DNA of 64,000 nt from Escherichia phage anhysbys. Positions 5,292 through 23,462 of this stretch are shown here, one piece after another. A program made the translations under genes and the position numbers. The stretch lies in sequence record NC_052656.1, one strand, 5' to 3'. The notes under the pieces are model-generated. The model was given only the letters and a program-made list of their open reading frames with translations, did not search any database and was not told the origin of the DNA. Each line of letters opens with the position of its first letter. Positions within the stretch are counted from its first letter, which is position 1.

Positions 5292-5303
5292 GAGGAGAAC
5301 AAA

Positions 5304-5591
5304 ATGTACTATTCACAAGACGAAGTAGCAAACATTAAACTGGCAGTGGGCGATCTTATTGTGTCACCTAACTACTATTGGGATAACACAGATTTGGTTG
5401 AAGTAGTAACCTATGTTGGAGTTGAAGGTATTGTGCTCTACACATTAGGTGGAGGTGTTGTTGGGGAAATGGAACGTTATACGACAACGAAGAAACTGGT
5501 AAGCTCTTATCACATGTTTTTACACCAAGGTTCGGAAGAGTATACAGCTTTCTTGTTGAAATTAGATGCAGATCGGGAGAAGGCACGATGA
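5304..5591 (+). CDS. hypothetical protein
   Basis: ORF track 95 aa. Confidence 0.55.
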   Translation: MYYSQDEVANIKLAVGDLIVSPNYYWDNTDLVEVVTYVGVEGIVLYTLGGGVVGEMERYTTTKKLVSSYHMFLHQGSEEYTAFLLKLDADREKAR

Positions 5592-5944
5592 AAATTGTAC
5601 ACGATGAAATTCAAATAGAAGAAAGTGACCTGATGGATTTGGATGCAGCTTTGGGGAAGGTAATCTATGCAGGAATTAAAGCCTTCCGTGAGAAGGCAAA
5701 CAATAGCACGTTTGTCATGATCCCCACTAAACTGATGCGTGTTTTGTATCCAAATAGAAGTGCGCCGTATACAGATGAAGAAGAGGAGACAGGTAGAAGA
5801 GAGTGGTTAAATATTTTAGAAAAGATGGAGAATGCTTTTATTGATAGTGGTAATCCAGAAATCGTGTATGCTGAAGATCAAAGGAAGGCACGATTAGAAG
5901 GCCGTCTTTTATTCGCTAGTTATTTTGATAATCTTTGGAGCTAA
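5588..5944 (+). CDS. hypothetical protein
   Basis: ORF track 118 aa; ATGA overlap. Confidence 0.55.
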   Translation: MKIVHDEIQIEESDLMDLDAALGKVIYAGIKAFREKANNSTFVMIPTKLMRVLYPNRSAPYTDEEEETGRREWLNILEKMENAFIDSGNPEIVYAEDQRKARLEGRLLFASYFDNLWS

Positions 5945-5946
5945 AT

Positions 5947-6123
5947 ATGTCTGAATTCTTCACAATGGCTTTCTTAGGGATCTATTTGATTATTAGTGCT
6001 GTTGGCTTAATCATGTCTCTAATAGAGGAAATGGGAATTAAGTGGAATTGTGTATTCGGTATAGCTCTTATGCTCACTCCAGTTTGGATTTACATTTGCA
6101 AATCGGTTGAACTAATTGGTTAA
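5947..6123 (+). CDS. small hydrophobic (membrane) protein
   Basis: Track frame 5935-6123; start refined to MSEFFTMAFLGIYLIISAVG. Confidence 0.5.
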   Translation: MSEFFTMAFLGIYLIISAVGLIMSLIEEMGIKWNCVFGIALMLTPVWIYICKSVELIG

Positions 6124-6133
6124 TGGAGGTAAT

Positions 6134-6472
6134 ATGTTTAGTAAAGAAATGAGAGAGGTGATCGCTACTCTGGTAGTTGATCATGGTGTTGAAGTTGAGC
6201 GTCACGTTTGGAAAGATGAGCCTCCTTTCTTTGATTTGGCATCACGGGCTAAAAGTCACATGTATCTCCTTGAAGATGATAAGGATTTTATTCTGCGTAT
6301 GCGTTATGATCGAGAGTTTAGAATTCCTCTTGACACAGATCCTGATGATGTAGTATTGTGGTTGGCAGAGCATTTCGCATTTAACGCTCTACATGGAAGA
6401 AGTTTTGGTAATGAACGTTGGGATACCATTTGTCGTAAACATAATATTGAACCAGAATACGGGAGTATGTAA
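6134..6472 (+). CDS. hypothetical protein
   Basis: Track frame; start refined to MFSKEM after GGAGG RBS. Confidence 0.55.
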   Translation: MFSKEMREVIATLVVDHGVEVERHVWKDEPPFFDLASRAKSHMYLLEDDKDFILRMRYDREFRIPLDTDPDDVVLWLAEHFAFNALHGRSFGNERWDTICRKHNIEPEYGSM

Positions 6473-6723
6473 TGTTAAGCGTTAAGCCTAAGATGATCAG
6501 TGAAGACCAGAAAGATTTCATTTACAAGTGTGGACGAATCTGGAGAGAGTATACCAAGGGTAACGAGGTCGTGGTGGTTACTGAACACCAGATTGAAATC
6601 TCTGATCTTTTCGGTGATTATTTGCAAGTGATCAAATTAGGCATTGACAGAGGTTTGGTGCAGGTGTTAACATTATCCCAAGTTGAAGCAGAACACTTAG
6701 ACAAAATCATTGTCGAGTTCTAA
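6472..6723 (+). CDS. hypothetical protein
   Basis: ORF track 83 aa. Confidence 0.5.
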   Translation: MLSVKPKMISEDQKDFIYKCGRIWREYTKGNEVVVVTEHQIEISDLFGDYLQVIKLGIDRGLVQVLTLSQVEAEHLDKIIVEF

Positions 6724-6736
6724 GAGGAGAAAGAAT

Positions 6737-6901
6737 ATGATCTCTTTAGAATCAATAGCTTTTAAGAAAGGGTATACCGCAGGGTTCAAGTTTGGTATGT
6801 TTAATAAAGTAAATCCATATTGTCCAAAGACACACAAAAAGGAATTCGAAGAATGGGAAGATGGATTTTCTAAAGGCTATCAGGCAAAAGGTTGGTTGTA
6901 A
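6737..6901 (+). CDS. hypothetical protein
   Basis: Track frame; start refined to MISLESIAF after AAGAGGAG. Confidence 0.45.
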   Translation: MISLESIAFKKGYTAGFKFGMFNKVNPYCPKTHKKEFEEWEDGFSKGYQAKGWL

Positions 6902-6910
6902 GGAGAGAAT

Positions 6911-7075
6911 ATGATTTTAAACTTCATCATCAACTTGTGTTTGACATTGGGATTACTCTGTGCAATAGTATCCCCTCTGGTTGGTGAATATTGTTCTGAA
7001 CTGGCGATGTTTATAGTTCTTGGTGCGGCTATTGCTAATATGTTTGTCGCTGCGATTTGTATGTTGTGGGAATAG
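6911..7075 (+). CDS. small hydrophobic (membrane) protein (~54 aa)
   Basis: Own translation MILNFIINLCLTLGLLCAIVSPLVGEYCSELAMFIVLGAAIANMF...; AGGAGAG RBS. Confidence 0.4.
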   Translation: MILNFIINLCLTLGLLCAIVSPLVGEYCSELAMFIVLGAAIANMFVAAICMLWE

Positions 7076-7086
7076 GAGGGAAGTTT

Positions 7087-7443
7087 ATGAAAAAACTAAT
7101 CTTAGCCACATTGCTGGCTACCGTAAGCTTCACCACTTACGCTCAAAAATTTGTAGCAGTTAAAACGGATATTGGTAAAGATGTTGTGATCACAGGCAAC
7201 AAATTTTACTATACACCTGGAAATGGTGTTCTGGAAGAGTGCCAAGATGTTGAGGCATATACAGGAAAAGAAGATAACACGGAACGTCCTTTTTATTCGA
7301 TTATAGCTACTTGCAAAAATGAAATAGTAGCTATTAAACAATACAAAGATGCCCCTGGAGGAGAATACTTGTTAGTCAAGAATATTAAGAGTGAAAAAAC
7401 TGCAAAGTTTACAGTAATTATTTTAAAAGGAGAAACGTTCTAA
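7087..7443 (+). CDS. putative secreted protein
   Basis: Track frame; start refined to MKKLILATLLATVSFTTYAQ (signal peptide) after AGGAGGG. Confidence 0.6.
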   Translation: MKKLILATLLATVSFTTYAQKFVAVKTDIGKDVVITGNKFYYTPGNGVLEECQDVEAYTGKEDNTERPFYSIIATCKNEIVAIKQYKDAPGGEYLLVKNIKSEKTAKFTVIILKGETF

Positions 7444-8582
7444 TGAAATACACTATTTTTGGAGATGTAGCTGTTGTAAATAAGGAATATGGCGTTGAAG
7501 CTAATAAACTTCCTGCTGGAGTTTGGGTTGTCAACTGCGATCCGCACGGTAACTACTCTTTAGTGCGTGGCGAAAGTTTCTCTCTTCCGAACACTCTTTA
7601 TGGGGAAACTAAAGATCGCGCCGCACATGTTATTAAAACATTTGCTCGTCGTAGTAAAGAAGGTAAAAATACTGGGGTGTTACTGACAGGGACAAAGGGC
7701 AGTGGTAAGACGATGTTAGCTAAACTGATTAGCATGTCCCTAATGTCCACAGAAGGTTTAGGTATTCCAACCATTTTGGTGACACAGCCTTACACAGATG
7801 CTGGATTCTTAGAATTTATGAGTAAAATTACAGATCGTGCTGTTGTTTTATTTGACGAATTTGATAAAGTGTACGCTAAGAAAGAAGATCAGGAAGCACT
7901 GTTGACCTTGTTGGATGGAACAGGAAGTGGGAATAAACTTTACATCCTAACTAAAAATAGTGGTTATATCTCGGAATATTTTGTAAACCGTCCTAGTCGT
8001 ATCTATTATAGTTTCAATTACGATAAACTGTCTAGTGAAACTATGTTAGATTACTTGGATAAGAACTTGGTAAATAAAAAACACGTAGATAACTTCCAAC
8101 GTTTATGGGATGTTAGCACAGAGTTGTCTTTCGATGTTATTCAAGGTATTGTAGAAGAATTGAATTTCTATCCAAAAATGACTTTTAAAGAATGTCTTGA
8201 AATGATGGGTATTTCTTTAGGCAACGATGCTAAATGGAATGTGGCTTCTATCGTAGCTAATGGCAAAACCTTGAAGGTGAATTGGATCAATAACTGGCAC
8301 GACTTCACCCCTACTAAGTTTTTGTCGGGTGCTTGTTCCCTGAACATATATCTGCAAAGCTTGAAAGATGATGAAGTGGAAGCAATGGAAACCAACAGTT
8401 ATGTTATCCTGGATGAAGATGGTGATCCACATATTGATCTATGTGCAACTGCTGATGGTCTAACTTGTGATCTGATTGAAGGTGGTAAGATTCTGGTGAT
8501 GAGCACCACACCAGGAAACACTCTGCGAGTGGTACTGGAGCCTGTAACACAACGTTCCACCACACTGGGTAGCGTGTTCTAA
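7443..8582 (+). CDS. AAA+/P-loop ATPase
   Basis: Walker A GTKGSGKT, Walker B-like VVLFDEFDK; 379 aa. Confidence 0.7.
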   Translation: MKYTIFGDVAVVNKEYGVEANKLPAGVWVVNCDPHGNYSLVRGESFSLPNTLYGETKDRAAHVIKTFARRSKEGKNTGVLLTGTKGSGKTMLAKLISMSLMSTEGLGIPTILVTQPYTDAGFLEFMSKITDRAVVLFDEFDKVYAKKEDQEALLTLLDGTGSGNKLYILTKNSGYISEYFVNRPSRIYYSFNYDKLSSETMLDYLDKNLVNKKHVDNFQRLWDVSTELSFDVIQGIVEELNFYPKMTFKECLEMMGISLGNDAKWNVASIVANGKTLKVNWINNWHDFTPTKFLSGACSLNIYLQSLKDDEVEAMETNSYVILDEDGDPHIDLCATADGLTCDLIEGGKILVMSTTPGNTLRVVLEPVTQRSTTLGSVF

Positions 8583-8587
8583 TAAAG

Positions 8588-8612
8588 ATGCCCCACAAGG
8601 GGCATTTCTTAT
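8588..8612 (+). terminator. rho-independent terminator-like hairpin
   Basis: GATGCCCC-ACAA-GGGGCATT then TCTTAT, after ATPase gene. Confidence 0.5.
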
Positions 8613-8623
8613 AGGATGAAATC

Positions 8624-9832
8624 ATGAGTAAAGCTAAAAGTTGGGAAGAATATAAAGCAGAATGCGAGATCATAGCTCTCTCTAAAGGATATAAAATTTT
8701 AGGCCATAAAGAATGGAAAGGGTGTGAGACTAAACTCCTGATAGAATGTCCTGTGCACGGTGTATGGGATACTTGTAAAATAGCTAACTTTAAAAGTGGG
8801 AAGTCTTGCCCTTCTTGTGGTGAATTAACAAAAAGGGAGAAGAGAACGAAGAGCAGGGAGGACCAAGAGAAAGAGTGTGAAGAAGAAGCGTTAAAAAGAG
8901 GTTGGCGCTTCTTGGGTATCTACGGAGAATGGCTCAAAGCTAAAAAGACACGAGTAATCTTACGTTGTGACAGGGGTCACGAGTTTAACACATCTACCAT
9001 AGACAACTTTAAGAATAATAAACAAGGTTGTCCAGTTTGTCGTTTAGAGGATATAGGTAAACACCATAAGCTTTCAGACGATCAGCACATACAAGATTTC
9101 ATGCGTACGGGTGTGTTTCCCGAAGGCACTACCTTCACTAATACAGGGGAAAGAGCTGGGAGGAGCGAAATACTTTGGAGTGTATTTTGCCCTATCTGTG
9201 CTATAGATGAGTTTTCCAAAGCTGGGGTAGGAACGGGATATTTTATCGGTAGAGGTAGTTCATTAAAACAGGGTATGCGCCCTTGTCGTTGTTCTGCCAG
9301 TTACAAATATTCTGAAGAAGAGATGACATTTAGAGCAAAAAGTGACGTAGAACGTAGAGGGTACGTGTGGTTGGGGTGGATCGGGAAAGCTTCTATACTT
9401 GGGGATTTTGAATATGGTTGCAAGGATCATGGGAAACATGTGTGTAGTGCTAATAATTGGTTAAATAAGGGGTGTGGTTGCCCTGGTTGTGCAGGTATGA
9501 ATCAACAACAAGCCTACATTAATTATATTTACGATGAGCAAGATATTATCTGTGCACTGAAGTTTGGTATTGCTAATAATAGTGATCGCCGTATCAAAGA
9601 ACAAAATAGTCGTAATGTGTTTACTATGAAACAGAACCAAGTGTGGCACTTCCCTACTGTGAAGCAATGCAAAGATGCAGAGAAGCGTTGTAAACGTGTC
9701 CTTAACACGGAAGCGGTGAGCAAATATGCTATGCCAGATGGCTACACAGAAACAGTAGAGTTATCTTGCATGGCCTCAATACAAAACATTTATAAACTTT
9801 ATGGTGGAATATTACAGGAGGAAACATGTTAG
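8624..9832 (+). CDS. cysteine-rich zinc-ribbon repeat protein with C-terminal GIY-YIG-like segment
   Basis: Repeated C..HG...CP.CG / C.RGHEF...CPVCR modules; C-terminal YINYIYDEQD ... FGIANNSDRR resembles GIY / YIG+Arg motifs. Confidence 0.6.
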   Translation: MSKAKSWEEYKAECEIIALSKGYKILGHKEWKGCETKLLIECPVHGVWDTCKIANFKSGKSCPSCGELTKREKRTKSREDQEKECEEEALKRGWRFLGIYGEWLKAKKTRVILRCDRGHEFNTSTIDNFKNNKQGCPVCRLEDIGKHHKLSDDQHIQDFMRTGVFPEGTTFTNTGERAGRSEILWSVFCPICAIDEFSKAGVGTGYFIGRGSSLKQGMRPCRCSASYKYSEEEMTFRAKSDVERRGYVWLGWIGKASILGDFEYGCKDHGKHVCSANNWLNKGCGCPGCAGMNQQQAYINYIYDEQDIICALKFGIANNSDRRIKEQNSRNVFTMKQNQVWHFPTVKQCKDAEKRCKRVLNTEAVSKYAMPDGYTETVELSCMASIQNIYKLYGGILQEETC

Positions 9833-10191
9833 TTGACGTTCAAATTATGCGCAACGAAAGAATGGACTTCTTTGAAGCAGTAGAGAAACATCTGATTCGA
9901 TGGGACTATGAATTTGTTCCTGCTGGATGTGGACCAGTAGAGCATTTAGCGGAAGACGATGATGTATACATGATCATTCGTCAAGTGTACCAGACAGACC
10001 AGTGTGAAGAAACTCCTGAACTAATTTTGTTTGAGTGCAAAGATCTTGCAAAATATTTTGACTATGGCGGAAAAGAGGGTCATAATCTCTCCAGATACAA
10101 TAAACGTCTACTTATCTTAGACTACATGCGGAACAACAAACACAAACTCATCGACGCAGACGCAGTTTATGGCTACTGGTGGATGGATTAA
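9826..10191 (+). CDS. hypothetical protein
   Basis: ORF track 121 aa. Confidence 0.55.
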   Translation: MLVDVQIMRNERMDFFEAVEKHLIRWDYEFVPAGCGPVEHLAEDDDVYMIIRQVYQTDQCEETPELILFECKDLAKYFDYGGKEGHNLSRYNKRLLILDYMRNNKHKLIDADAVYGYWWMD

Positions 10192-10204: not shown

Positions 10205-10393
10205 ATGGCACGTTTAGCAGATAACCCTGTATTCTACCCCGTTCTTGATCTTTATGATGAATTGACATATGTTGTGGAGCGGTATAATTACAATGAAGAC
10301 CTCTTGGAGACAAACCTTAAAGTAGTTCTGATGAAAGCCTATCAGCAAGGGCAACGTGAAATTTTGGAGAGTATGAAAAATGCGAATAACTGA
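10205..10393 (+). CDS. hypothetical protein
   Basis: Track frame; start refined to MARLADNP after AAAGGAG. Confidence 0.5.
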   Translation: MARLADNPVFYPVLDLYDELTYVVERYNYNEDLLETNLKVVLMKAYQQGQREILESMKNANN

Positions 10394-10922
10394 TGAATAT
10401 GTATTCTTCTTTTCACATAAAGATGTGTTTAGTAATTGGTATATTGCACCCTTTACAGAAACCGAACCAGGTTACAATCAGACATTTAATTGTGTCGAAC
10501 AATACATGATGTGGCGTAAAGCTTTGCTTTTTAATGATCACAACACTGCACAGGCTATTCTGACTCATAGTTTGATACGGAAAGATGAGAAGATCCAAGC
10601 TTATTACAAACGTATGGGTAGGGCAGTGTCAGATTTTGATAACAACGTATGGGAAGAGAACCGTGAGCGTATTGTTATGCGAGGTTTATGCTTGAAATAT
10701 GTACAGAATCCAGATTTGTATGCAGACTTACACCTTTACCAATACAAAACGTTTGTTGAAGCAAGTCCTTACGATAAGGTTTACGGTATTGGAATGGGAA
10801 TGTATGAACCAGGGGTGCTAAATCCGGTCAACTGGAAAGGGCAAAATCTTTTAGGTAAATATCATAACAAACTGATCGAAATACTTTTCCCAGACAAAAT
10901 ACCGCAGAGACGATATTTGTGA
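10380..10922 (+). CDS. NADAR-domain (YbiA-like) protein
   Basis: FSN(W/F), CVEQYMMWRKA, MGR, Y(D/G)IGMG and LLGKYH.. blocks align with E. coli YbiA family from memory. Confidence 0.75.
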   Translation: MRITDEYVFFFSHKDVFSNWYIAPFTETEPGYNQTFNCVEQYMMWRKALLFNDHNTAQAILTHSLIRKDEKIQAYYKRMGRAVSDFDNNVWEENRERIVMRGLCLKYVQNPDLYADLHLYQYKTFVEASPYDKVYGIGMGMYEPGVLNPVNWKGQNLLGKYHNKLIEILFPDKIPQRRYL

Positions 10923-10976
10923 TATTTTAACTTTTTTCATTTTTAGAACAAAGGCGTCACTTTGTAGCACAGAAAT

Positions 10977-11012
10977 AAGGCTCCTACAGCACCGTAGAGA
11001 GCCTATTATTTT
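10977..11012 (+). terminator. rho-independent terminator
   Basis: AGGCTCCTAC...GTAGAGAGCCT stem then ATTATTTT, after NADAR gene. Confidence 0.55.
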
Positions 11013-11166
11013 GTCCTATACAAACCCTTGTCTTTTTCAGTTTGCATCACTAGGATTCGATCTGAGTGGGTTCCTGAAGGTCTGCCAATAAGATTAAAGG
11101 TTATCTCAAATTCCCATTACCTATTATCTCAAAAATCCCTCAAATTATTTAAACTTTTTAAGAATT

Positions 11167-11212
11167 TACAAAAGTGAAAGTTGAAAACCAAAATTTAAAG
11201 TTTAGGAAAATT
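11167..11212 (+). repeat. AT-rich ~45-bp direct repeat, copy 1
   Basis: TTACAAAAGTGAAAGTTGAAAACCAAAATTTAAAGTTTAGGAAAATT. Confidence 0.6.
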
Positions 11213-11303
11213 ATCTTAAAATGTTAGATACAAAACAAAACTCAAAAGTCAAGGAAAATTTTAAAAATTTTGCGCGCCCACAGTATTTAAAGTTTTTTTG
11301 CTT

Positions 11304-11350
11304 TTACAAAAATGAAAGTACAAAAGCAAAATTTAAAGTTTACAAAAATT
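11304..11350 (+). repeat. AT-rich ~45-bp direct repeat, copy 2
   Basis: TTACAAAAATGAAAGTACAAAAGCAAAATTTAAAGTTTACAAAAATT. Confidence 0.6.
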
Positions 11351-11389
11351 TATGCAGATGGGGATGAGAAGAGTTCTCATGTGGAAATG

Positions 11390-11470
11390 CAAATGATAAT
11401 GATTCGCATTTAGGTTTATAAATGAGAATGATTCTTATTTAATAAAGTAAATGATAATCATTCTCATTTA
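11390..11470 (+). promoter_or_regulatory. three tandem Fur-box-like 21-bp palindromic sites
   Basis: AAATGATAATGATTCGCATTT / AAATGAGAATGATTCTTATTT / AAATGATAATCATTCTCATTT, about 30 bp apart. Confidence 0.5.
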
Positions 11471-11727
11471 GAGAATGACGCGCAGGGGCGGTGTTTGTCT
11501 CGCGCTCCCGTGTCCCCTCGCCATGTAATAAGAATAACAGATCCAACCAGGAAAGCAAGCGATTATTTTATCTTTACATTTCTTTACGAATATATAGCGC
11601 CCAGCCTACCGGCGATCAACCTTCCAACCAGTGCCCCTGGTATGTTAGCCCCGCCTTTACGCCGTGGGGTGGCGCTTCCTCTTCTGTATGTAAAACAGTA
11701 TAAGCCCTATCCCTGGGCTTGTCAAGA

Positions 11728-11994
11728 TTATTTTTTGTTTTCTTGCCAGGTCAGGACACCTAGCCAAAAATGAATATCACCTTTTCCCCAATGTGGTATA
11801 TTGCTTTCTTTCCCACCTTCACGCGCCCAGGTAAAACCGCCCGTGTAACTTTGTAATTGATAACTATCCTCGACCTTATAATCTGATAGGTTGAGAACGG
11901 TTTCAACCTTTAAGCCCGTTGCGCTTGCTACCTGGTGTACCGTGCCGCCTTGCCAGCCCAATGAGTGCATAAGGTGTAATGTAGTAGTTGTCAT
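11728..11994 (-). CDS. hypothetical protein in GC-rich island (doubtful)
   Basis: ORF track 88 aa; atypical GC-rich composition; isolated on minus strand. Confidence 0.25.
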   Translation of the reverse strand: MTTTTLHLMHSLGWQGGTVHQVASATGLKVETVLNLSDYKVEDSYQLQSYTGGFTWAREGGKESNIPHWGKGDIHFWLGVLTWQENKK

Positions 11995-12104
11995 GGTATC
12001 GCCCTTTCTTTGTTGTGCGCCCTGGTTGGCGCGGTAGAAAGATGATAGCCTTTTCCTTTATATATAGCAAGCAAAAAGAAAATAAAAAAGATTGAAAAAG
12101 TGGT

Positions 12105-12132
12105 TGACGTTCCTCACCTGGTAGCGTAGTAT
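12105..12132 (+). promoter_or_regulatory. candidate promoter for first gene of plus array
   Basis: TTGACG-16-TAGTAT; ~130 nt leader to ATG 12268. Confidence 0.4.
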
Positions 12133-12267
12133 TCATCTTGTCGAGGGGGGCGCGGCACAACGACAATAAACAACAGGAGGGCGCAATGTAGGACGGGCAA
12201 AGGTGAGGATCTCCATAATCCACCGTCAACCAACAAAAAACATCATTCATCACCTGGAGTTAAAATC

Positions 12268-12465
12268 ATGGCAACATTGCACATAGTAGCGAAAGCAGGA
12301 CAAATCAGCGTCGTGGTAAACGGTTTTACTGAGTTCAGTCATCCCCAGGATGATCATGAAACGGTTTTATCTTTCATTGATTCCCTGTTAGAAATGGGAG
12401 TCATTACAGAAGACCAGCACGCTACAAAGTGCAAGCGCGTTAATCAAATTGCAGGGATAGAATAA
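12268..12465 (+). CDS. hypothetical protein
   Basis: ORF track 65 aa; GGAG RBS; first gene of plus array. Confidence 0.5.
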   Translation: MATLHIVAKAGQISVVVNGFTEFSHPQDDHETVLSFIDSLLEMGVITEDQHATKCKRVNQIAGIE

Positions 12466-12471
12466 AAAGTA

Positions 12472-12530
12472 TTGACAACAAACAACAACCTGATAAGATG
12501 TATCACATAGGGCGGGAAGTGGTTTCCCGC
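12472..12530 (+). promoter_or_regulatory. promoter + 5' stem-loop cassette (PeSL-like)
   Basis: TTGACA, -10 TAAGAT, then GCGGGAA-GTGGT-TTCCCGC hairpin before gene 12556. Confidence 0.6.
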
Positions 12531-12555
12531 TCGTAACAGAAGAGAGATTATCATC

Positions 12556-12828
12556 ATGGCATCATATAGCGCAACAATGATCGTAGCTGGCACAACTGGT
12601 AAACCTATGAGCGGTGGCGGATCTTTCGCTAATATCAACATTGACGGGCGTTTATCCCTGGACGCAGCGATCACCGTGGCGCGGGAAACATTTAAGAAAG
12701 AATGTAAATTCAATAAACAAGATTATCTCGGTTTCGCTATTGAAAAAACCGCGCGTTTTGTTGATTATAAAAGCCCAAAAATGGTTGATACTACACTAAA
12801 AGCGCAAGATGTAGCGTTTTTGCTTTAA
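12556..12828 (+). CDS. hypothetical protein
   Basis: ORF track 90 aa; preceded by promoter/stem-loop cassette. Confidence 0.6.
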   Translation: MASYSATMIVAGTTGKPMSGGGSFANINIDGRLSLDAAITVARETFKKECKFNKQDYLGFAIEKTARFVDYKSPKMVDTTLKAQDVAFLL

Positions 12829-12831
12829 GGC

Positions 12832-12886
12832 TTGACATTAACGAATAATTTGTTAATATGTTACATAAAGCGGGAATAGTTCCCGC
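12832..12886 (+). promoter_or_regulatory. promoter + 5' stem-loop cassette
   Basis: TTGACA, TTAATAT, GCGGGAA-TAG-TTCCCGC. Confidence 0.6.
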
Positions 12887-12904
12887 TATTTGTAAGGTGG
12901 TAGA

Positions 12905-13162
12905 ATGTTTTACATCAAATTAAAAGGTCACGTGATCGCGTTCAAAGATAACGCTTTTTACAGATTAGCAAAATATGCGTTAATACATCCCCACTATGTT
13001 TATATAAGGGGGCGTGATGAAATAAATATCTTTGATCAAACAACATGCGAGAACATCGAGATCCGCAAGGTTGGCGTACGTGATTATCGTACATCTTTCT
13101 ACCCTTGCAAGGATTCAGCAAGTCTTTTTAAAGTATGCCAATTGTTGAAAAAAGGTGGTTAA
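12905..13162 (+). CDS. hypothetical protein
   Basis: ORF track 85 aa; cassette upstream. Confidence 0.55.
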   Translation: MFYIKLKGHVIAFKDNAFYRLAKYALIHPHYVYIRGRDEINIFDQTTCENIEIRKVGVRDYRTSFYPCKDSASLFKVCQLLKKGG

Positions 13163-13721
13163 TATGGGCCGCGAATATGTGATCCAGTCTTGGGTAAAAC
13201 ATGAAGCAGATGATCCGCGCATCGTTCCCGATCATCTTATCGATGAATCCACGGGATATAGCGGTGAGCAAATAGGTAACAGATTAGCACGTAGTAACGG
13301 CAACGTAAAAGCGCGTTATGTGCGCCCTGGTTGGCTGGCAAATGGTAACGCTGATTTATCCAGTGCGGAAGATGCGAGCGACGGCGCGAAAGATAATCCT
13401 TTGTACAAAATTGATCCGGCTTTTCGTGTCCTGGATGAATACCCCAGCAAGATAGCGGCGCTTGATGAAGCTCTGGAAAGTAAGCGCATCACCTGGACCG
13501 CTTACAACATGGCAAAAAACGTACTTGATGGTAAATTGATTCAAGCCGAAAGAAAATTAGCCAAAATTGCAGCCATAGCCCAGGAGGAAGACGAGGAGAC
13601 AACGGAAGAGGAAGAGTACGAAGAGATCCCGCCGTTGTTGTGTGTTGATGCTTTTCCTGATTATCAGCCGACAGAGGAAGAAAAAAGGATCGCACTAGAA
13701 AACTTTGAAAATAGTCTTTGA
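13155..13721 (+). CDS. hypothetical protein with acidic C-terminus
   Basis: ORF track 188 aa. Confidence 0.6.
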   Translation: MVNMGREYVIQSWVKHEADDPRIVPDHLIDESTGYSGEQIGNRLARSNGNVKARYVRPGWLANGNADLSSAEDASDGAKDNPLYKIDPAFRVLDEYPSKIAALDEALESKRITWTAYNMAKNVLDGKLIQAERKLAKIAAIAQEEDEETTEEEEYEEIPPLLCVDAFPDYQPTEEEKRIALENFENSL

Positions 13722-13775
13722 CATATCGCCGCCACTGGCATAATATTTACCACGTAGGGCGGCAATGGTGCCGCT
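13718..13775 (+). promoter_or_regulatory. promoter + 5' stem-loop cassette
   Basis: TTGACA, CATAAT, GGCGGCA-ATGG-TGCCGC. Confidence 0.6.
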
Positions 13776-13783
13776 CATAGTGA

Positions 13784-13879
13784 AATTATGCAAGAGGTTT
13801 ACAATGATTAATAAAGAAAATAGCTTGACGGTTGGAACGATTAACGCTATCATTTTCGCCGTTCCATTTTGGGTTGTAG
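13784..13879 (+). CDS. tiny hydrophobic protein (~31 aa)
   Basis: Own translation MINKENSLTVGTINAIIFAVPFWVVVAAIIF; sits between two cassettes. Confidence 0.4.
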
Positions 13880-13887
13880 TAGCGGCT

Positions 13888-13949
13888 ATTATTTTCTAAA
13901 AAATATTCTTGACAACGTTTTTTAATCTGATAAGATGTATCACATAGGG
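13888..13949 (+). promoter_or_regulatory. promoter + 5' stem-loop cassette
   Basis: TTGACA, TAAGAT, GGCGGCGGAA-TAC-TTCCCCGCC. Confidence 0.6.
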
Positions 13950-13989
13950 CGGCGGAATACTTCCCCGCCAAAACAAAAAGGGTAACACA

Positions 13990-14352
13990 ATGAGCAAGCA
14001 AATTAATACTATCATGTTTAATCTGGTATCTTTCCGCGACGATATGAAAAATTTACCACGTGAAACGGTTGATATTCATGTTTCAGCTTATCGCGCCCTT
14101 ATTGACATGTTACCGCTAAAACGTGATCAATATGCCGCTAACACGATGCTTAATGCTATGCTTAAAAAGATGATTCAAACGGATCTCACCCTAGCGTATG
14201 AGTATCAAGGGCGCTTATATGCAACTTATAACAAGGCGGTACCTGGTCTGGGAAGTACCGAAGAGTTGCACGGCTTAAACCTGGATCAAAACACTTGGGA
14301 TAGTATGCGCCGCGTTATGGTATGGGCCGAAAGCGGTAAAATTTACGAATAA
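13990..14352 (+). CDS. hypothetical protein
   Basis: ORF track 120 aa; cassette upstream. Confidence 0.6.
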   Translation: MSKQINTIMFNLVSFRDDMKNLPRETVDIHVSAYRALIDMLPLKRDQYAANTMLNAMLKKMIQTDLTLAYEYQGRLYATYNKAVPGLGSTEELHGLNLDQNTWDSMRRVMVWAESGKIYE

Positions 14353-14358
14353 AAACGG

Positions 14359-14417
14359 TTGACACTGTTTAAACTTCTGGTATAGTTTACCACATAGGGC
14401 GGGAAGTGGTTTCCCGC
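14359..14417 (+). promoter_or_regulatory. promoter + 5' stem-loop cassette
   Basis: TTGACA, TATAGT, GCGGGAA-GTGGT-TTCCCGC. Confidence 0.6.
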
Positions 14418-14440
14418 CAACAATGAAAAAGGTTATCATC

Positions 14441-14806
14441 ATGGCTATTAATATTAATGTTTCCGCTTATGCTACCCTGGCTGCCACGGCTAAAATTGAA
14501 TTGTCCAGCATTGAGGCGGTGCACATTAGCGCCCGTCGCTGGTTTCAACAGTCTTACGGTAACACATATTTTTCTTTAATGGTTGACGTTGAGATCGGCG
14601 GTAAACTGATCGAGGTGGTTAACGTTCCGTTTCAATATGGCTATGGTGATCATTTTGATACCGTCGCCCTGGAAGAATTTAGCAAGGTTATTAATATGGA
14701 AGGTAAAGAGTTTTCACGCGGCGCGTATCTTTCCCGTTTTTGCCGTGACAATGGGATCACTGTATACAGTCATGCGAGCGATGTTAAACGTAAAAAAGAT
14801 TTATAA
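14441..14806 (+). CDS. hypothetical protein
   Basis: Track frame 14423-14806; start refined to MAININ (pattern ..ATCATCATGGC shared with other array genes). Confidence 0.6.
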   Translation: MAININVSAYATLAATAKIELSSIEAVHISARRWFQQSYGNTYFSLMVDVEIGGKLIEVVNVPFQYGYGDHFDTVALEEFSKVINMEGKEFSRGAYLSRFCRDNGITVYSHASDVKRKKDL

Positions 14807-14813
14807 AAAGCAT

Positions 14814-14872
14814 TGACAGCACGAATAAAAAGAGTAAACTGTATTACATAGAGAGCGGGAACACTTCCCGCC
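14814..14872 (+). promoter_or_regulatory. promoter + 5' stem-loop cassette
   Basis: TTGACA, TAAACT, GCGGGAA-CAC-TTCCCGC. Confidence 0.6.
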
Positions 14873-14895
14873 TCACTGAAAAAGAGAGAAAAATC

Positions 14896-15135
14896 ATGGC
14901 TAAATCTAAAATGTACAACGGTCACAAAAACAAAACTCATTGGAATGTAAACCTTTGGATTAATAACGATGAATCGTTATACCGGTTGGCCCAAGATTTT
15001 ATTAACGCTAATGCTAATCGTAATGATGCGGCGCGGGATATGATGCTTTTTCTGGAACAAACTGGACAAGATAAAACGCCAGACGGTTTCAAATATAGCA
15101 CTACTGCGATCCGTGCCGCGATGGTTGGAATGTAA
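14896..15135 (+). CDS. hypothetical protein
   Basis: ORF track 79 aa; cassette upstream. Confidence 0.6.
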   Translation: MAKSKMYNGHKNKTHWNVNLWINNDESLYRLAQDFINANANRNDAARDMMLFLEQTGQDKTPDGFKYSTTAIRAAMVGM

Positions 15136-15144
15136 TAAAAACAG

Positions 15145-15203
15145 TTGACAACGTTTAAAATTAGTGTAAGATGTATCACATAGGGCGGGAAGTGGTTTCC
15201 CGC
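15145..15203 (+). promoter_or_regulatory. promoter + 5' stem-loop cassette
   Basis: TTGACA, TAAGAT, GCGGGAA-GTGGT-TTCCCGC (same as 12472 copy). Confidence 0.6.
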
Positions 15204-15225
15204 CAAAACAGAGAGATTAAAGATT

Positions 15226-15453
15226 ATGGCTATCAATATTGTTCGCGTATCTGGCACCGTTGGCACTTCCCAGGTCATTGCCGTTGTAACAAACAAAAAG
15301 ATTAATGATGTATGTGAGATCTTGAATAAGTGGGCTGTTGCTAATTTTGGGGAATATGCAAGCGTTGAGTACATCGAATCCTACCAGGTGCCAACCATCA
15401 GCCTAACCGATCTCAACGTTGATCGCCTGTTATGCCTGGACGAATTAATCTGA
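15226..15453 (+). CDS. hypothetical protein
   Basis: ORF track 75 aa; cassette upstream. Confidence 0.6.
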   Translation: MAINIVRVSGTVGTSQVIAVVTNKKINDVCEILNKWAVANFGEYASVEYIESYQVPTISLTDLNVDRLLCLDELI

Positions 15454-15462
15454 AAAAGATTG

Positions 15463-15519
15463 TTGACACCGGAAAGAAAAAGAGTAAACTGTATTACGTA
15501 GGGCGGCAATGGTGCCGCT
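15463..15519 (+). promoter_or_regulatory. promoter + 5' stem-loop cassette
   Basis: TTGACA, TAAACT, GGCGGCA-ATGG-TGCCGC. Confidence 0.6.
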
Positions 15520-15543
15520 CACAACAGAAGAGAGATTATTACG

Positions 15544-15759
15544 ATGGCCAATATCCGCACACTGTTAAAAAATGCAAGTCAAGTTTTATTTTCAGATGAC
15601 GAGTATTTCAATAAAGACATTACAGGCGTAAAAAATCTTAAAGATGTAAAGGATGTGATAGGTATTCGCGGATCTTTACGTAAAGGTGACTACTACGGCA
15701 ATAAAGTACAATATAAATTAAATCAGTCTTATGATTTTACTTTGACAATTATTTCATAA
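15544..15759 (+). CDS. hypothetical protein
   Basis: ORF track 71 aa; cassette upstream. Confidence 0.55.
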   Translation: MANIRTLLKNASQVLFSDDEYFNKDITGVKNLKDVKDVIGIRGSLRKGDYYGNKVQYKLNQSYDFTLTIIS

Positions 15760-15764
15760 AACCG

Positions 15765-15827
15765 CTTGCAATCTTAATAAAATAAAGTAAACTGTATTAC
15801 ATCAAGGCGGCGGAATGGTCCACCGCC
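15765..15827 (+). promoter_or_regulatory. promoter + 5' stem-loop cassette
   Basis: CTTGCA, TAAACT, GGCGGCGGA-ATGG-TCCACCGCC. Confidence 0.55.
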
Positions 15828-15851
15828 TAACAAAGAGAAGAGGAAAACACC

Positions 15852-16019
15852 ATGATCACTTTCGCTACCCGTGAAGCCGCTCGCAACGTTGCCCGTAAAG
15901 TTAACGCCGCCAACCTGGGCGCTACGTTTAAAGCACCTGTAAAAGATGAATCAGGAAAATGGATCTTCCCTGGTCTGCGTCACGCTGATAAGCTAGGCAC
16001 TTTAAGCCTTAAAAAATAA
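15852..16019 (+). CDS. small hypothetical protein (~55 aa)
   Basis: Own translation MITFATREAARNVARKVNAANLG...; cassette upstream; shares 5' leader and first codons with 16094 gene. Confidence 0.45.
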   Translation: MITFATREAARNVARKVNAANLGATFKAPVKDESGKWIFPGLRHADKLGTLSLKK

Positions 16020-16022
16020 TCG

Positions 16023-16059
16023 TTGACTTTTCGTTATAGCGCCTTATAATGGGCGCTAT
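16023..16059 (+). promoter_or_regulatory. near-consensus sigma70 promoter with -10 inside a palindrome
   Basis: TTGACT-16-TATAAT; inverted repeat ATAGCGCC-TTATAATG-GGCGCTAT encloses -10. Confidence 0.6.
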
Positions 16060-16093
16060 AGAGAAGAGAAACCACTACTGACAAGGAAACACC

Positions 16094-16315
16094 ATGATCA
16101 CTTTCGCTATTGTCGCCGTTGTTGCTGGTCAAGTTTACGTAAACGATACATTCACCACAGAAGACAAGGCCGCAGGAGATATAACCGCCGTTTACAACGA
16201 GTGCAAGGCAGTAGAAAGGATGTTAGCGCCTTGTATGTTAATGAGTGAACGCCAGGACGGGATAACAGTGTTTACTAACATTGAGACAGGGTACCAAATG
16301 GTAGTAACAAAATAA
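16094..16315 (+). CDS. hypothetical protein
   Basis: ORF track 73 aa; TTGACT-16-TATAAT promoter upstream. Confidence 0.55.
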   Translation: MITFAIVAVVAGQVYVNDTFTTEDKAAGDITAVYNECKAVERMLAPCMLMSERQDGITVFTNIETGYQMVVTK

Positions 16316-16318
16316 AGC

Positions 16319-16375
16319 TTGACACGGATTTAATTTTCAGTAAACTGTTACACGTAGGGCGGGAATAGTTCCCGC
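16319..16375 (+). promoter_or_regulatory. promoter + 5' stem-loop cassette
   Basis: TTGACA, TAAACT, GCGGGAA-TAG-TTCCCGC. Confidence 0.6.
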
Positions 16376-16393
16376 TAAAAAGAGAGAAAAACC

Positions 16394-16747
16394 ATGAAAG
16401 CACAAAATGCAATTAAAGAGTACATCCTTGCCGCTATCGATTTTAATGATTACGGTATTACAACCGAAAAAGAGAAGATCGCGGAATTGATGCGCCGTTT
16501 TAATTCCGAGTACTGGTACCCTGATAACCAATCACGTTTTAATTATAGTATTGTTAAAGCACTTGCATCATGGTTACAAGGTTTGCCATCAGATATTAAT
16601 ATCGCTTTCGAATATTGGGAAATTGATCGCTTGTTAACATCCTGGGGATACATTAAAGAGAATAGCAGCGATGATAAAATCCAACGAGAAAGGGAAAATT
16701 ATTGGCTTTATATTGCAGGCGTGATCCTTGCTTGCTCTTATGAATGA
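16394..16747 (+). CDS. hypothetical protein
   Basis: ORF track 117 aa; cassette upstream. Confidence 0.6.
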   Translation: MKAQNAIKEYILAAIDFNDYGITTEKEKIAELMRRFNSEYWYPDNQSRFNYSIVKALASWLQGLPSDINIAFEYWEIDRLLTSWGYIKENSSDDKIQRERENYWLYIAGVILACSYE

Positions 16748-16753
16748 TAAACC

Positions 16754-16807
16754 TTGACAATTTTACAAAACAGTTTAAATTAATAATATAGCGGCAATGG
16801 TGCCGCT
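16754..16807 (+). promoter_or_regulatory. promoter + 5' stem-loop cassette
   Basis: TTGACA, TAATAA/AATATA, GCGGCA-ATGG-TGCCGC. Confidence 0.55.
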
Positions 16808-16826
16808 CATATAAAGAGGAAACAAA

Positions 16827-16973
16827 ATGAATACATCTAATCGCGCAGAAAAAATCCAATCTTCCAAGATCCGCAAGGCCTGGAACGAGGAAGTGATCCG
16901 CAAAGGCGACAAGCGCAATAAAACAAAGCGCGGGAAGAGTGACAAATATAATTGGATGGATTTAGAGGATTAA
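16827..16973 (+). CDS. small basic protein (~48 aa)
   Basis: Own translation MNTSNRAEKIQSSKIRKAWNEEVIRKGDKRNKTKRGK...; cassette upstream, terminator downstream. Confidence 0.45.
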   Translation: MNTSNRAEKIQSSKIRKAWNEEVIRKGDKRNKTKRGKSDKYNWMDLED

Positions 16974-16979
16974 CATAAC

Positions 16980-17007
16980 AAGGGCGCACCAAGCGCCCTT
17001 TCTTTTT
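16980..17007 (+). terminator. rho-independent terminator
   Basis: AAGGGCGC-ACCA-AGCGCCCTT + TCTTTTT. Confidence 0.7.
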
Positions 17008-17028
17008 ACATGTAGAGGATAAACAAAG

Positions 17029-17214
17029 ATGACTTTAAGCGAGCTTAAAACAGCCTACAACGCAACGTTAAAAATAGCCGTGCGTTACCGTGATGCGTAC
17101 GGTTTTATCGCGCAGGGCGTGATCCTGGGCTTTTCTGACGATGGTTTGATCTATGTTGATGCACATTATAACAAGGTAAAACCTGAAAACGTCATTAGCA
17201 TAAAATATCTTTAA
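17029..17214 (+). CDS. hypothetical protein
   Basis: ORF track 61 aa. Confidence 0.5.
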   Translation: MTLSELKTAYNATLKIAVRYRDAYGFIAQGVILGFSDDGLIYVDAHYNKVKPENVISIKYL

Positions 17215-17220
17215 AAGTGG

Positions 17221-17280
17221 TTGACACCATAACCGGACCTGTTAAACTGTATTACATCAGGCGGGGAATAGTTCCCCACC
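17221..17280 (+). promoter_or_regulatory. promoter + 5' stem-loop cassette
   Basis: TTGACA, TAAACT, GCGGGGAA-TAG-TTCCCCAC. Confidence 0.6.
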
Positions 17281-17299
17281 ATACAAAAAGGTAAATATT

Positions 17300-17506: not shown

Positions 17507-17557
17507 TCCTGTTTTATATTGTGTTATAGTTATCGTGTAGGGCGGCAATGGTGCCGC
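17503..17557 (+). promoter_or_regulatory. promoter + 5' stem-loop cassette
   Basis: TTGATC, TATAGT, GGCGGCA-ATGG-TGCCGC. Confidence 0.55.
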
Positions 17558-17577
17558 GCCCCTTTGAGGATGCAATC

Positions 17578-21890: not shown

Positions 21891-22097
21891 GCCCGAACAA
21901 TGTTGATAGCTTTCGCCTATGAAAAACCGACACAGAACAAAATTGAATAAATCGCGGTATCGAGCTAATCAACCATTAAACGAATAACCATACCTCCCAG
22001 GGTAACAGGCTGTTAGAGAGCCATTTATAGCGGTTAAAATCGATCAACAACCAACAACAAACCATCAAAAACACCCTTTTACCTCCTTTCTAGTGCA

Positions 22098-22539
22098 ATG
22101 ATAACCATTATCATCTACCCATGATTATCTATGCAATATAAGCGCATAATTATAATGTTGATAATAGTTCGCAACAACTAACCAACAAACAACATAAAAC
22201 AAGAAGCAAACTAATCATAATCAAAGGAATAATAGCAAGATGATTGATAACGACAAACAATCAAACCATGATGAATACTAAGCAAGATAACGATAACACG
22301 ACAAAACAACCAACTAACGAACAATAACAAACGAAACCATTAAAATAATAACTATTGCCATAATAGTGACTGAATGAAATCATTACAAAACGAATCATTC
22401 CCAGGATCATCATTAGCACGCTATGCCGGACACATAGCGAGCTAATAATAAGCCAACTACACCCCAACAATCATAACCATCGGTGATGGTTATTTCTTGT
22501 TACTGCGTAGCTTGCAATAATTGCAAGCGTAATTACGCT
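22098..22539. repeat. cluster of perfect palindromes in ORF-free region
   Basis: ATGATAACCATTATCAT (22098), ATAACCATCGGTGATGGTTAT (22474), GCTTGCAATAATTGCAAGC (22510), AGCGTAATTACGCT (22526). Confidence 0.5.
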
Positions 22540-22732: not shown

Positions 22733-22855
22733 GGGGGCGAAATGTTACCGCCACAGGCGGGAATGTTGAGCACTAAGAAAAGAGATAAACCTTAATCATG
22801 GGGGCGTAAATATCCGCAGGATTGCCAACGGCGATCCGGTAGGATGTTGAGCATC
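22733..22855 (+). repeat. two tandem related units beginning TGGGGGCG and ending GATGTTGAGCA
   Basis: Unit 1 ~22733-22775, unit 2 ~22799-22855; internal GC stems. Confidence 0.4.
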
Positions 22856-22923
22856 TTCTCTTAAACGTAAATAAAATCAGAAAATTCTTGATTTATTTTA
22901 GTTTTTATGTTAATAAACGTTTA

Positions 22924-22950
22924 AATAATAATCATTCTCATATGAATAAT
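22924..22950 (+). promoter_or_regulatory. Fur-box-like site
   Basis: AATAATAATCATTCTCATATGAATAAT. Confidence 0.4.
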
Positions 22951-23101
22951 AGTCTGCTTGTCATGAGCGGGATTAGTTGACATTGTTCCGTCATATGATG
23001 AGGTTGCCAACCTATTGATAAATAAGTGTTTGTGTGATTTATAATCAAGTGGCCCACCTTGTCGCTATGTTGGCATGAGCCTTGCATAAGTCATTGAATA
23101 C

Positions 23102-23130
23102 GAATGATAATTATTCTCATTCGCATGATA
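23102..23130 (+). promoter_or_regulatory. Fur-box-like site
   Basis: GAATGATAATTATTCTCATTCGCATGATA. Confidence 0.4.
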
Positions 23131-23462
23131 TTTGGGAATTGTCGCTGCGTGGACCTGACGGCCCGAAAATTCGCGTTAAGCACTTCTTACGTATGCGCCA
23201 TGATTTTTGCCATATGATATTGATTCTATTAGATATTCTTGCCATGATTGCCATGAAACAGGGTGTCCCGAAATAATCTCTCCCCGTAGATATTTTGGGT
23301 TACTTTTTATACAAGAGTGGGGTGTCAAAAATAATCGATATATATGGGATAATTGATAGGAATCCCCTATGGTAATTCGATTGTAATTGCCGAAGATTGA
23401 TCGTATGATGTTGGTGATTGATGATTGCCATGAAAGATGGCTAACGATGAGAGGAGATTGTC

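Follow-up and report, generated by a model that had tools for sequence, protein, structure and literature searches.

Do the tandem palindromes at 11391-11469 belong to the host ferric uptake regulator (Fur) or to a repressor of the phage's own, and what would they do in a virulent phage? The window (the whole 64-kb stretch of DNA analysed) comes from a Phapecoctavirus (Stephanstirmvirinae), whose relatives have genomes of ~150 kb. Between 10400 and 13400 it shares 96-97% identity with many Phapecoctavirus genomes, among them those of Klebsiella phage ZCKP1 and Escherichia phage phAPEC8. Rightward genes end at 10922. They are followed by a first non-coding stretch (10922-12268), which contains one small leftward ORF, and by a rightward array of small early genes (12268-21853, plus strand). 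After a second non-coding stretch (21853-23463) comes another rightward array, and the two plus-strand arrays start at about 12226 and 23381, respectively. The promoters driving the early array form a repeated family of host type (TTGACA-N17-TAAGAT or TAAACT), and each is followed by a conserved hairpin.

GC skew in the window tracks the direction of transcription and gives no origin signal. Searches against Rfam retrieved no match at the gathering threshold in the whole window and, around the site, only noise at E values up to 10. ARAGORN detected no tRNA genes, either in the window or in L007, so that the tRNA-Met and tRNA-Ile genes annotated over the Fur boxes in OY978796.1 are unsupported.

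Fur-box likeness of the palindromes

Five palindromes had been pointed out in an earlier note, and all five were found at the places given there, each 21 bp long. Cluster 1 comprises box 1 (AAATGATAATGATTCGCATTT, 11391..11411), which scores 21.3 bits with an E. coli-derived matrix, box 2 (AAATGAGAATGATTCTTATTT, 11420..11440, 21.0 bits), which starts exactly 29 bp past the start of box 1, and box 3 (AAATGATAATCATTCTCATTT, 11449..11469, 24.4 bits). Box 3 keeps the exact 29-bp period, is the top site of the window and has a single mismatch to TGATAATNATTATCA. The array is closed by a Fur half-site, GAATGAC (11473..11479), a place where GAATGAC, GAATAAC or GAATAGC is kept in all aligned lineages. 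Cluster 2 is located in and just ahead of the terminal repeat. Its members within the repeat are box 4 (AAATAATAATCATTCTCATAT, 22923..22943, 20.3 bits) and box 5 (GAATGATAATTATTCTCATTC, 23102..23122, 23.9 bits). The third member, a sixth box that the earlier note had not listed (AATGATAACCATTATCATC, 22097..22115, 18.8 bits), was found in the 1-kb non-coding stretch ahead of the terminal repeat and is kept in the close relative Schickermooser.

A repeat finder that is blind to any consensus placed boxes 1-5 in one family (D7), with spacings of 29, 29, 11474 and 179 bp. For the 21-mer consensus with at most three mismatches, the chance expectation from dinucleotide shuffles was 0.01. The 7-1-7 Fur consensus retrieved eight matches with at most two mismatches, against 0.95 expected. 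Mismatches to TGATAATNATTATCA number one to three per box, box 2 having three and thus lying beyond the two-mismatch search. The boxes conform to the inverted repeat typical of Fur boxes in its 19-bp 9-1-9 (or 7-1-7) form, AATGATAATNATTATCATT. They also show the hexamer register, in the form of two pairs offset by 6 bp (11386/11392 and 23097/23103): box 1 has a shifted partner at 11386-11404 (14.5 bits) and box 5 has one at 23097 (13.1 bits). E. coli Fur sites have an overlapping-dimer architecture (PMC2189734). The 6-bp partners agree with this architecture, and so does an additional GATAAT hexamer present at box 5 in phages phiWec188 and phiWec179 (GATAATGATAATTATTCTC).

The matrix was built from nine Fur-controlled promoter regions of E. 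coli K-12 (fepA-fes, fepD-entS, fepB-entC, fhuA, cirA, ryhB, fecI, fecA and fiu). Expectation-maximisation on these regions alone, started at each possible seed and using no phage sequence, yielded a 19-bp palindromic motif that corresponded to the 9-1-9 form given above. When the 64-kb window was scanned with this matrix, boxes 3, 5, 1, 2 and 4 occupied ranks 1-5, the site at 22097 was sixth, and the shifted partners at 11386 and 23097 were seventh and eighth. Five sites reached 20 bits or more, against a mean of 0.015 per dinucleotide shuffle (n=200), and the best score in a shuffled window averaged 13.3 bits. The earlier note had named shuffled AT-rich sequence as the background that a Fur matrix would have to beat, and scores of 20.3-24.4 bits are far beyond it. 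The native training sites scored between 9 and 22.5 bits, and boxes 1-5 match or surpass the best of them. Box 4 is identical to the E. coli ryhB Fur box (AATAATAATCATTCTCATT) at 18 of 19 positions.

The reverse comparison used a motif learned, unseeded and unsymmetrised, from nine non-coding phage segments picked by position alone. This phage-only motif, AATGAGAATCATTCTCATT, correlates with the E. coli motif at r = 0.92 in register and at no more than 0.46 in other registers. In a 25-kb E. coli ent-fep stretch, its six top matches all fell in three Fur-regulated intergenic regions. In each of five other E. coli loci the top match was the known Fur operator region, ryhB scoring highest. The operators recovered in this way were those of fepA-fes, fepD-entS, fepB-entC, fhuA, cirA, ryhB, fecI and fiu.

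Two other regulators with comparable sites were set aside by an informal comparison: the Zur box agrees at 13 of 21 positions and has an unlike centre, and the ARG box has unlike spacing. A hairpin or cruciform reading of the palindromes was also rejected. Their folding is weak (0 to -2.4 kcal/mol), and the left and right arms are unlike each other in the two clearest cases, boxes 1 and 2; both observations argue for duplex sites of a symmetric protein dimer rather than hairpins.

The E. coli-only matrix and the phage-only motif both support the likeness to Fur boxes that the earlier note had seen. Judged by sequence, the sites show every computable feature of a Fur box except overlap with a promoter. 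It is well supported on these grounds that they represent genuine operators of the host Fur, and we use the label 'Fur box' accordingly for them. Fur very probably binds at these boxes.

The non-coding surroundings of the boxes

Cluster 1 (11391-11479) forms the end of a conserved leftward module, located in the gap between convergent transcription units. The module opens with P2 and a conserved block, continues with a CpxR-type box ahead of P1, and passes through a GC-rich leader to the Fur boxes and the iteron-like repeats beyond them. Upstream of P2, a leftward ORF of 88 amino acids (11728..11994, minus strand) is annotated in most relatives and matches phrog_19316 (E = 1.5e-52), which has no assigned function. 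P2 is a leftward promoter (11697..11725, minus strand; TTGACA-17-TATACT) with 11 of 12 consensus positions. A P2-type promoter, scoring 9-12 out of 12, lies 24-28 nt from the conserved block in 21 loci.

The conserved block (11588..11690, minus strand), which includes GTTAGCCCCGCCTTTNCGCCGTGGGG on the plus strand, is a candidate small RNA transcribed from P2. All Stephanstirmvirinae, Mydovirus and Certrevirus loci carry it, as do 15 IMG/VR contigs. In the fold of the block alignment one pair covaries (A-U to G-C) and the loop of one hairpin varies, and folding of 11470-11745 gave z = -2.2 for the plus strand and -0.7 for the minus strand. These signs of a structured RNA from P2 are weak, suggestive at most.

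Just upstream of P1, a CpxR-type box (11573..11587, minus strand) reads GTAAA-N5-GTAAA, which we take to be the CpxR consensus. It is the sole exact match in the window, which on its own is not significant. In 20 of the 21 loci the two pentamers are invariant and the N5 is variable. An indel of 9-10 bp between this box and the -35 in Stephanstirmvirinae corresponds to roughly one helical turn. P1 (11531..11558, minus strand) reads TTGCTT-16-TATTCT here and TTGCAA-17-TATATT in Vequintavirinae-type loci; in this phage it is weak, with 7 of 12 consensus positions. In both P1 and P2 the hexamers are kept in place and the GC-rich spacers vary. Transcripts from P1 would start near 11524, which would put the Fur boxes at about +55 to +135. 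The GC-rich leader (11480..11522, minus strand; core CGGTGNTTGTCTC) lies between P1 and the Fur boxes and is conserved at the DNA level across subfamilies, with no convincing covariation among the aligned loci.

On the far side of the Fur boxes there are two iteron-like AT-rich direct repeats of 72 nt (11141-11212 and 11279-11350; family D8, 82% identical), followed by the 3' end of the convergent rightward operon. At the equivalent place, Vequintavirinae carry three or four different direct repeats of ~40 bp. One ORF called within the module, phAPEC8_00257 (11495-11773), was rejected as a gene. The region was treated as non-coding because the ORF starts with TTG, overlaps the conserved module, is broken by a frameshift in Schickermooser and is not called in other phages, being absent from the CR9 annotation. 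No conserved -35/-10 pair of a rightward promoter was found within the cluster 1 Fur array. The earlier note had placed this array upstream of the plus-strand early genes, which is true only loosely: the repeated family has its first early promoter at ~12473, and the leftward transcription module lies in between.

The conserved block was retrieved in 21 loci, from Phapecoctavirus, Justusliebigvirus, Mydovirus, Certrevirus and IMG/VR contigs. Nineteen of these carry one to five Fur boxes, the nearest lying 185-198 bp from GTTAGCCCCGCCTTTNCGCCGTGGGG. In the other two, the nearest Fur box is at -235 and -929, and in the latter locus the intervening sequence is clearly unrelated. The DNA to the right of box 3 is GC-rich and its nucleotide conservation extends well beyond the genus, the module and the Fur boxes being found at a fixed spacing in both Stephanstirmvirinae and Vequintavirinae. 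The Vequintavirus rV5 has two tandem copies of a Fur box followed by a GC-rich hairpin, and lacks the exact block. Lineages differ in how many boxes they carry (1-5), in how far apart these are (23-38 bp) and in their precise sequence, yet the motif stays, which indicates selection for binding itself.

Boxes 4 and 5 of cluster 2 lie in the direct terminal repeat (22850..23178, 329 bp), which is the physical end of the genome. In the Schickermooser record the first 329 bp equal the last 329 bp and map to 22850-23178 of the window, and many database records begin at 22850. A terminal repeat of 328 bp has been reported (Korf et al. 2019). Box 4 is 75 bp from one boundary of the repeat, and box 5 is 57 bp from the other. 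Among relatives that are ~70% identical, invariant columns make up 95% of box 4, 79% of box 5 and 48-59% of the remaining repeat; the lower value of box 5 is due to the hexamer insertion. The sole other strongly conserved block in the repeat alignment is the 55 bp around the terminus. Two promoter-like sequences in the repeat, TTGACA at 22977 and TTGATA-19-TATAAT at 23015-23045, are not conserved in phiWec188 or phiWec179.

The homologue of cluster 1 aside, the remaining ~96 kb of Schickermooser contains no site of at least 13 bits. The strong Fur boxes of this 151-kb genome are therefore all confined to two non-coding places. Matches to the DnaA box (TTATCCACA, at most one mismatch) were not enriched in the window (22 matches, 20 expected), and the match at 22156 is the only one to adjoin a Fur cluster.

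When the 91-bp cluster was used as a blastn query, 503 phage records were matched. The array-bearing phages belong to the unrelated groups Stephanstirmvirinae, Vequintavirinae and Demerecviridae, the matched T5-like Demerecviridae including phages of Escherichia, Salmonella, Klebsiella, Shigella, Erwinia and Vibrio. In T5, whose genome was scanned to the left of 11.5 kb, sites of 19.3-24.6 bits occur at 9552-9715, an interval covered by both the left terminal repeat and the annotated injection-stop feature (NC_005859 iss). They are flanked by paired DnaA boxes, by a T-run hairpin adjoining the major nick at 9748/9749 and then by a repeated tgtcggatttgcaca unit. This unit is found beside the arrays of T5-like phages, which also contain 6-bp offset pairs, and the arrays of NBEco001 and S130 are larger than that of T5. 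The palindromes and repeats of T5 have been described as highly conserved and of unknown function, with no mention of Fur (Davison, bioRxiv 10.1101/866236). In the literature searched, we found neither a published link between Fur and these phages nor a transcriptome for them. Since the motif is common to unrelated phages, a shared host factor is the simplest explanation.

Possible roles of the boxes

In our preferred reading, the phage may use its Fur boxes as cis elements of two large non-coding hubs, with a roadblock as the mechanism. Each box, a 9-1-9 inverted repeat, would bind one Fe2+-Fur dimer, and some would offer a second site 6 bp off. Fur would fill these very strong sites once the DNA enters an iron-replete cell, and the bound array would act as a nucleoprotein barrier against host RNA polymerase that has started at P1 or P2. 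This block would also stop read-through over the terminal repeat or the concatemer junction. Whatever is located past it would become iron-dependent, including an AT-rich repeat region that may be an origin and transcription running antisense into the upstream operon.

This reading is favoured by the conservation of P1 and P2 as promoters aimed at the boxes. However, the boxes are clear of the -35 and -10 of any conserved promoter, unlike the usual geometry of Fur repression, and for this reason we regard a roadblock as a real possibility that falls short of probable. P1 is weak in this phage, and the boxes of the terminal repeat have no conserved promoter over or beside them. The near-consensus strength of the sites also speaks against this reading, since it suggests selection for permanent occupancy over graded iron sensing. 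Moreover, an intrinsic terminator could provide insulation independently of host iron status, and the T5 arrays are in a region without a known regulated gene. That the boxes affect phage physiology in any way is a tentative proposition.

Alternatively, Fur could be an architectural host factor in a cis-acting DNA function other than transcription, one shared with the injection-stop region of T5-like phages. At least three unrelated virulent lineages (T5-like, rV5-like and phAPEC8-like) would then have fixed Fur-box arrays for a DNA transaction, for instance to arrest or ratchet the entry of DNA, to process its ends or to fire an origin. Fur could mark the boundaries of the terminal repeat or assist their processing in packaging, hold or ratchet the incoming DNA end, or organise an origin through the iteron-like repeats. 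Boxes 4 and 5 are near-symmetric with respect to the repeat boundaries, and the T5-like arrays occupy a terminal repeat and injection stop signal beside DnaA boxes, direct repeats and the 9748/9749 nick. Cluster 1 adjoins iteron-like repeats fed by two promoters, as in transcription-activated origins, and near-consensus site strength agrees with permanent occupancy. Nevertheless, cluster 1 sits 11.7 kb from the genome end, the window has neither an enrichment of DnaA boxes nor an origin signal in its GC skew, and two-step DNA transfer is not known in the phAPEC8-like group. No case of Fur acting in packaging, DNA entry or replication is known to us, and we consider an architectural role somewhat unlikely.

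The sites might also be operators of another protein that shares the specificity of Fur, encoded by the phage or by the host. Three tandem palindromes with 8-bp spacers look like a phage operator array, most early proteins have no known function, and T5 has a pre-early DNA-binding protein, A2. Furthermore, the phage half-sites favour TGAGAAT (G 0.50-0.55) and those of the host TGATAAT (G 0.17). Yet TGAGAAT half-sites also occur in strong native Fur boxes (ryhB, fhuA and fecI), and the motif is not private to one lineage, being spread over three unrelated groups and 503 phage records; such a protein would need to have emerged in phages that are unrelated. No Fur homologue was found in any of these phage families, the Phapecoctavirus genome contains no homologue of A2, A1 or other T5 pre-early proteins, and the ten proteins neighbouring the site gave no match to a DNA-binding domain. 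Fur would in any case compete at sites of 20-24 bits. The phage-encoded repressor that the earlier note offered as its alternative is disfavoured by the same spread of the motif and lack of Fur or A2 homologues, and we consider an operator of another protein improbable.

A Fur sink, the principle of the Fur titration assay, would turn the six to eight very strong sites per genome copy into a means of titrating Fur, so as to derepress host iron uptake, RyhB and related genes and feed phage metabolism. The sites surpass most native ones, are off promoters and are multiple, with two doubled by the terminal repeat, and the phage encodes components of an iron-dependent anaerobic ribonucleotide reductase (NrdD and NrdG). 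A cell contains ~5,000-10,000 Fur molecules, which the sites on about 100 genome copies could approach. However, such titration would come late in infection, and a sink needs no fixed position, whereas the boxes hold a constant distance to the module and the genome ends across subfamilies. T5 degrades host DNA within minutes, which would make derepression of host genes pointless for that phage. We give titration a slim chance.

Finally, repression by Fur of the rightward early promoter arrays, by which early transcription would follow host iron status as the earlier note had proposed, is highly improbable: the boxes do look like real Fur boxes and are in non-coding regions ahead of the two plus-strand arrays (~12226 and ~23381), but none covers the -35/-10 of a rightward early promoter, the nearest rightward promoters are about 760-1000 bp from cluster 1, ~300-460 bp from box 4 and ~130-280 bp from box 5, cluster 1 is separated from the early array by a leftward ORF and two leftward promoters, and more than 15 further early promoters of the repeated family have no Fur box.

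Significance and comparison with known systems

The Fur boxes previously known from phage genomes all switch iron-related cargo genes carried by prophages. Here, predicted Fur sites stronger than the native ones form arrays in the terminal repeat and in a conserved module of strictly lytic phages, with no iron gene nearby. If Fur binds them, infection by these phages would be tied to the iron status of the host. This link would matter because therapy and biocontrol cocktails often contain phAPEC8-, rV5- and T5-like phages and infection sites are iron-limited. In addition, some of the unexplained palindromes in the T5 injection-stop region gain a concrete candidate identity. Were the architectural role to hold, the palindromes of the T5 injection stop signal would be Fur sites, with a bearing on two-step DNA transfer. 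The conserved non-coding module of rV5- and phAPEC8-like phages, with its candidate Fur and CpxR-type sites, had been annotated as a spurious ORF or as tRNAs.

The operators OR1-OR3 of lambda are tandem sites of a phage repressor. Like arrays of that type, cluster 1 has three tandem palindromes of ~20 bp with short spacers. In contrast to them, it carries a host Fur motif that is common to unrelated families, overlaps no divergent promoters and has no cognate repressor among the proteins screened. A closer parallel in placement is offered by IHF at the cos and attP sites of lambda and by DnaA boxes at phage and plasmid origins, where conserved consensus sites for an abundant host protein likewise occur in non-coding DNA near ends or iteron-like repeats. 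Unlike these proteins, Fur has no documented role of such kind, and its DNA binding is iron-dependent.

Among temperate phages, stx1 of Stx1 phages is a cargo gene controlled by a Fur box. The same holds for sitABCD on lambdoid phages, an iron-related cargo (PMC6969025). These cases share with ours a host Fur box on a phage genome. However, they involve a single box over a cargo promoter expressed from the prophage, whereas the phages studied here are strictly virulent, carry no iron cargo and have their boxes in non-coding regions acting, if at all, in cis.

The Fur operators of E. coli (ryhB, fhuA, fecI and entC-fepB) have the same 19-bp 9-1-9 form as the phage boxes, and both include overlapping partners shifted by 6 bp. 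In contrast to the E. coli operators, which lie over the -35/-10 of iron-uptake or iron-sparing genes, the phage boxes are found in the non-coding hubs of a virulent phage. They are also separate, 23-38 bp apart, and nearer to the consensus than most host sites.

Repeat Region 3 of T5, with its injection stop signal, belongs to a phage whose proteins are unrelated to those of Phapecoctavirus. Its terminal repeat is 10.2 kb long, compared with 329 bp here, and its array stands beside a nick and paired DnaA boxes, which Davison places within large inverted repeats, whereas the boxes of this phage have no paired DnaA boxes next to them. Nevertheless, both phages carry the same motif in a large untranslated region linked to the terminal repeat, with direct repeats alongside, and the two arrays are similar enough to be matched directly by blastn.

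Leftward promoters and doubtful annotations around the first Fur-box cluster

The module that ends in the first cluster of Fur boxes (predicted sites for host Fur) carries two conserved host-type promoters, P2 (TTGACA-17-TATACT) and P1 (TTGCTT-16-TATTCT). Both are directed leftward, on the minus strand within 11531-11725, and flank a block kept at the DNA level across subfamilies. Upstream of P1 lies a perfect CpxR-type box (GTAAA-N5-GTAAA, 11573-11587, minus strand), whose distance to the P1 -35 element differs between the two subfamilies by a 9-10-bp indel. The P1/P2 region may encode a small RNA or serve as an origin activated by transcription.

Several annotations over or near this region are doubtful. 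The plus-strand ORF phAPEC8_00257 (11495-11773), which has a TTG start, overlaps the conserved non-coding module and is probably not a gene; a frameshift splits it in the relative Schickermooser, and several relatives have no call for it. In the Klebsiella Mydovirus OY978796.1, the record places a tRNA-Met and a tRNA-Ile straight over the Fur boxes and the GC-rich leader (10891-11044, corresponding to 2504-2657 of the locus extracted from it, L007). This annotation looks wrong, because ARAGORN detected no tRNA in the whole of that locus. The plus-strand product of 10380-10922 has a NADAR domain (PF08719 in Pfam, E = 1.8e-35), and the label 'GTP cyclohydrolase II' that it bears in several database records looks like a mis-annotation.

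Repeated elements of the rightward arrays

An early promoter cassette is repeated in about fifteen copies between 12459 and 20457. Each copy consists of AAAAA-TTGACA-N17-TAAGAT or TAAACT, and no more than 10 nt further on the 5' leader contains a conserved GC hairpin, GGGCGGGAAGTGGTTTCCCGCC or GGGCGGCAATGGTGCCGCC. This hairpin, shared by the early transcripts, may act in their processing or stability or bind a protein. In the second rightward array, a 33-nt segment (GATCGTGTGAACTGGGTAAAAGAA...GCA) occurs six times between 26887 and 39025, each time in a separate ORF, which suggests a family of paralogous genes. Both of the first two genes past the terminal repeat (23463-24165) match phrog_2510.

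The terminal repeat and the stretch before it

Relatives that are about 70% identical strongly conserve the sequence around each end of the 329-bp terminal repeat: ATGTTGAGCA..TTCTCTTAAACGTAAAT at the left (22843-22897) and GAAAATTCGCGTTAAGCA at the right (23160-23185). These sequences are probably terminase recognition or cutting sites. The database records of ESCO5 and ESCO37 begin precisely with Fur box 5, at 23103, rather than at a repeat boundary. Between the terminator of the last early gene and the terminal repeat lies a stretch of about 1 kb (21890-22850) with no ORF of at least 100 aa. Its plus strand is rich in A and C, and CAACAA-type runs and short palindromes are numerous. The sixth Fur box, at 22097, falls in this stretch, as does one DnaA-like box, at 22156.

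Fur-box layouts in other phages

Two Klebsiella Mydovirus-type contigs (L019 and L029) also have Fur boxes, such as AATAATAATGATTCTCATT (22.4 bits), in another non-coding region, which lies rightward of the first-cluster module at a distance of about 9.8-10.4 kb. As the spacing between the two regions is similar to that in the window, the two-cluster layout is conserved outside Stephanstirmvirinae. Several near-identical records of Phapecoctavirus or Vequintavirinae type carry Campylobacter or Acinetobacter phage names (e.g. B15, A141 and ABPW7), host labels that look doubtful given 95-97% identity to coliphages.

Predicted consensus Fur-box arrays, scoring up to 24.6 bits, were also found in T5 and T5-like phages. 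Fur is absent from the published account of these palindromes (bioRxiv 10.1101/866236). The arrays lie within the terminal repeat and the annotated injection stop signal: that of T5 at 9552-9715 of NC_005859.1 (4053-4216 of locus L016), and those of two T5-like loci at 2966-3160 and 3497 (L002) and at 2966-3185 and 3520 (L003). On one side they have paired DnaA boxes, and on the other a hairpin that resembles a terminator, located at the major nick.
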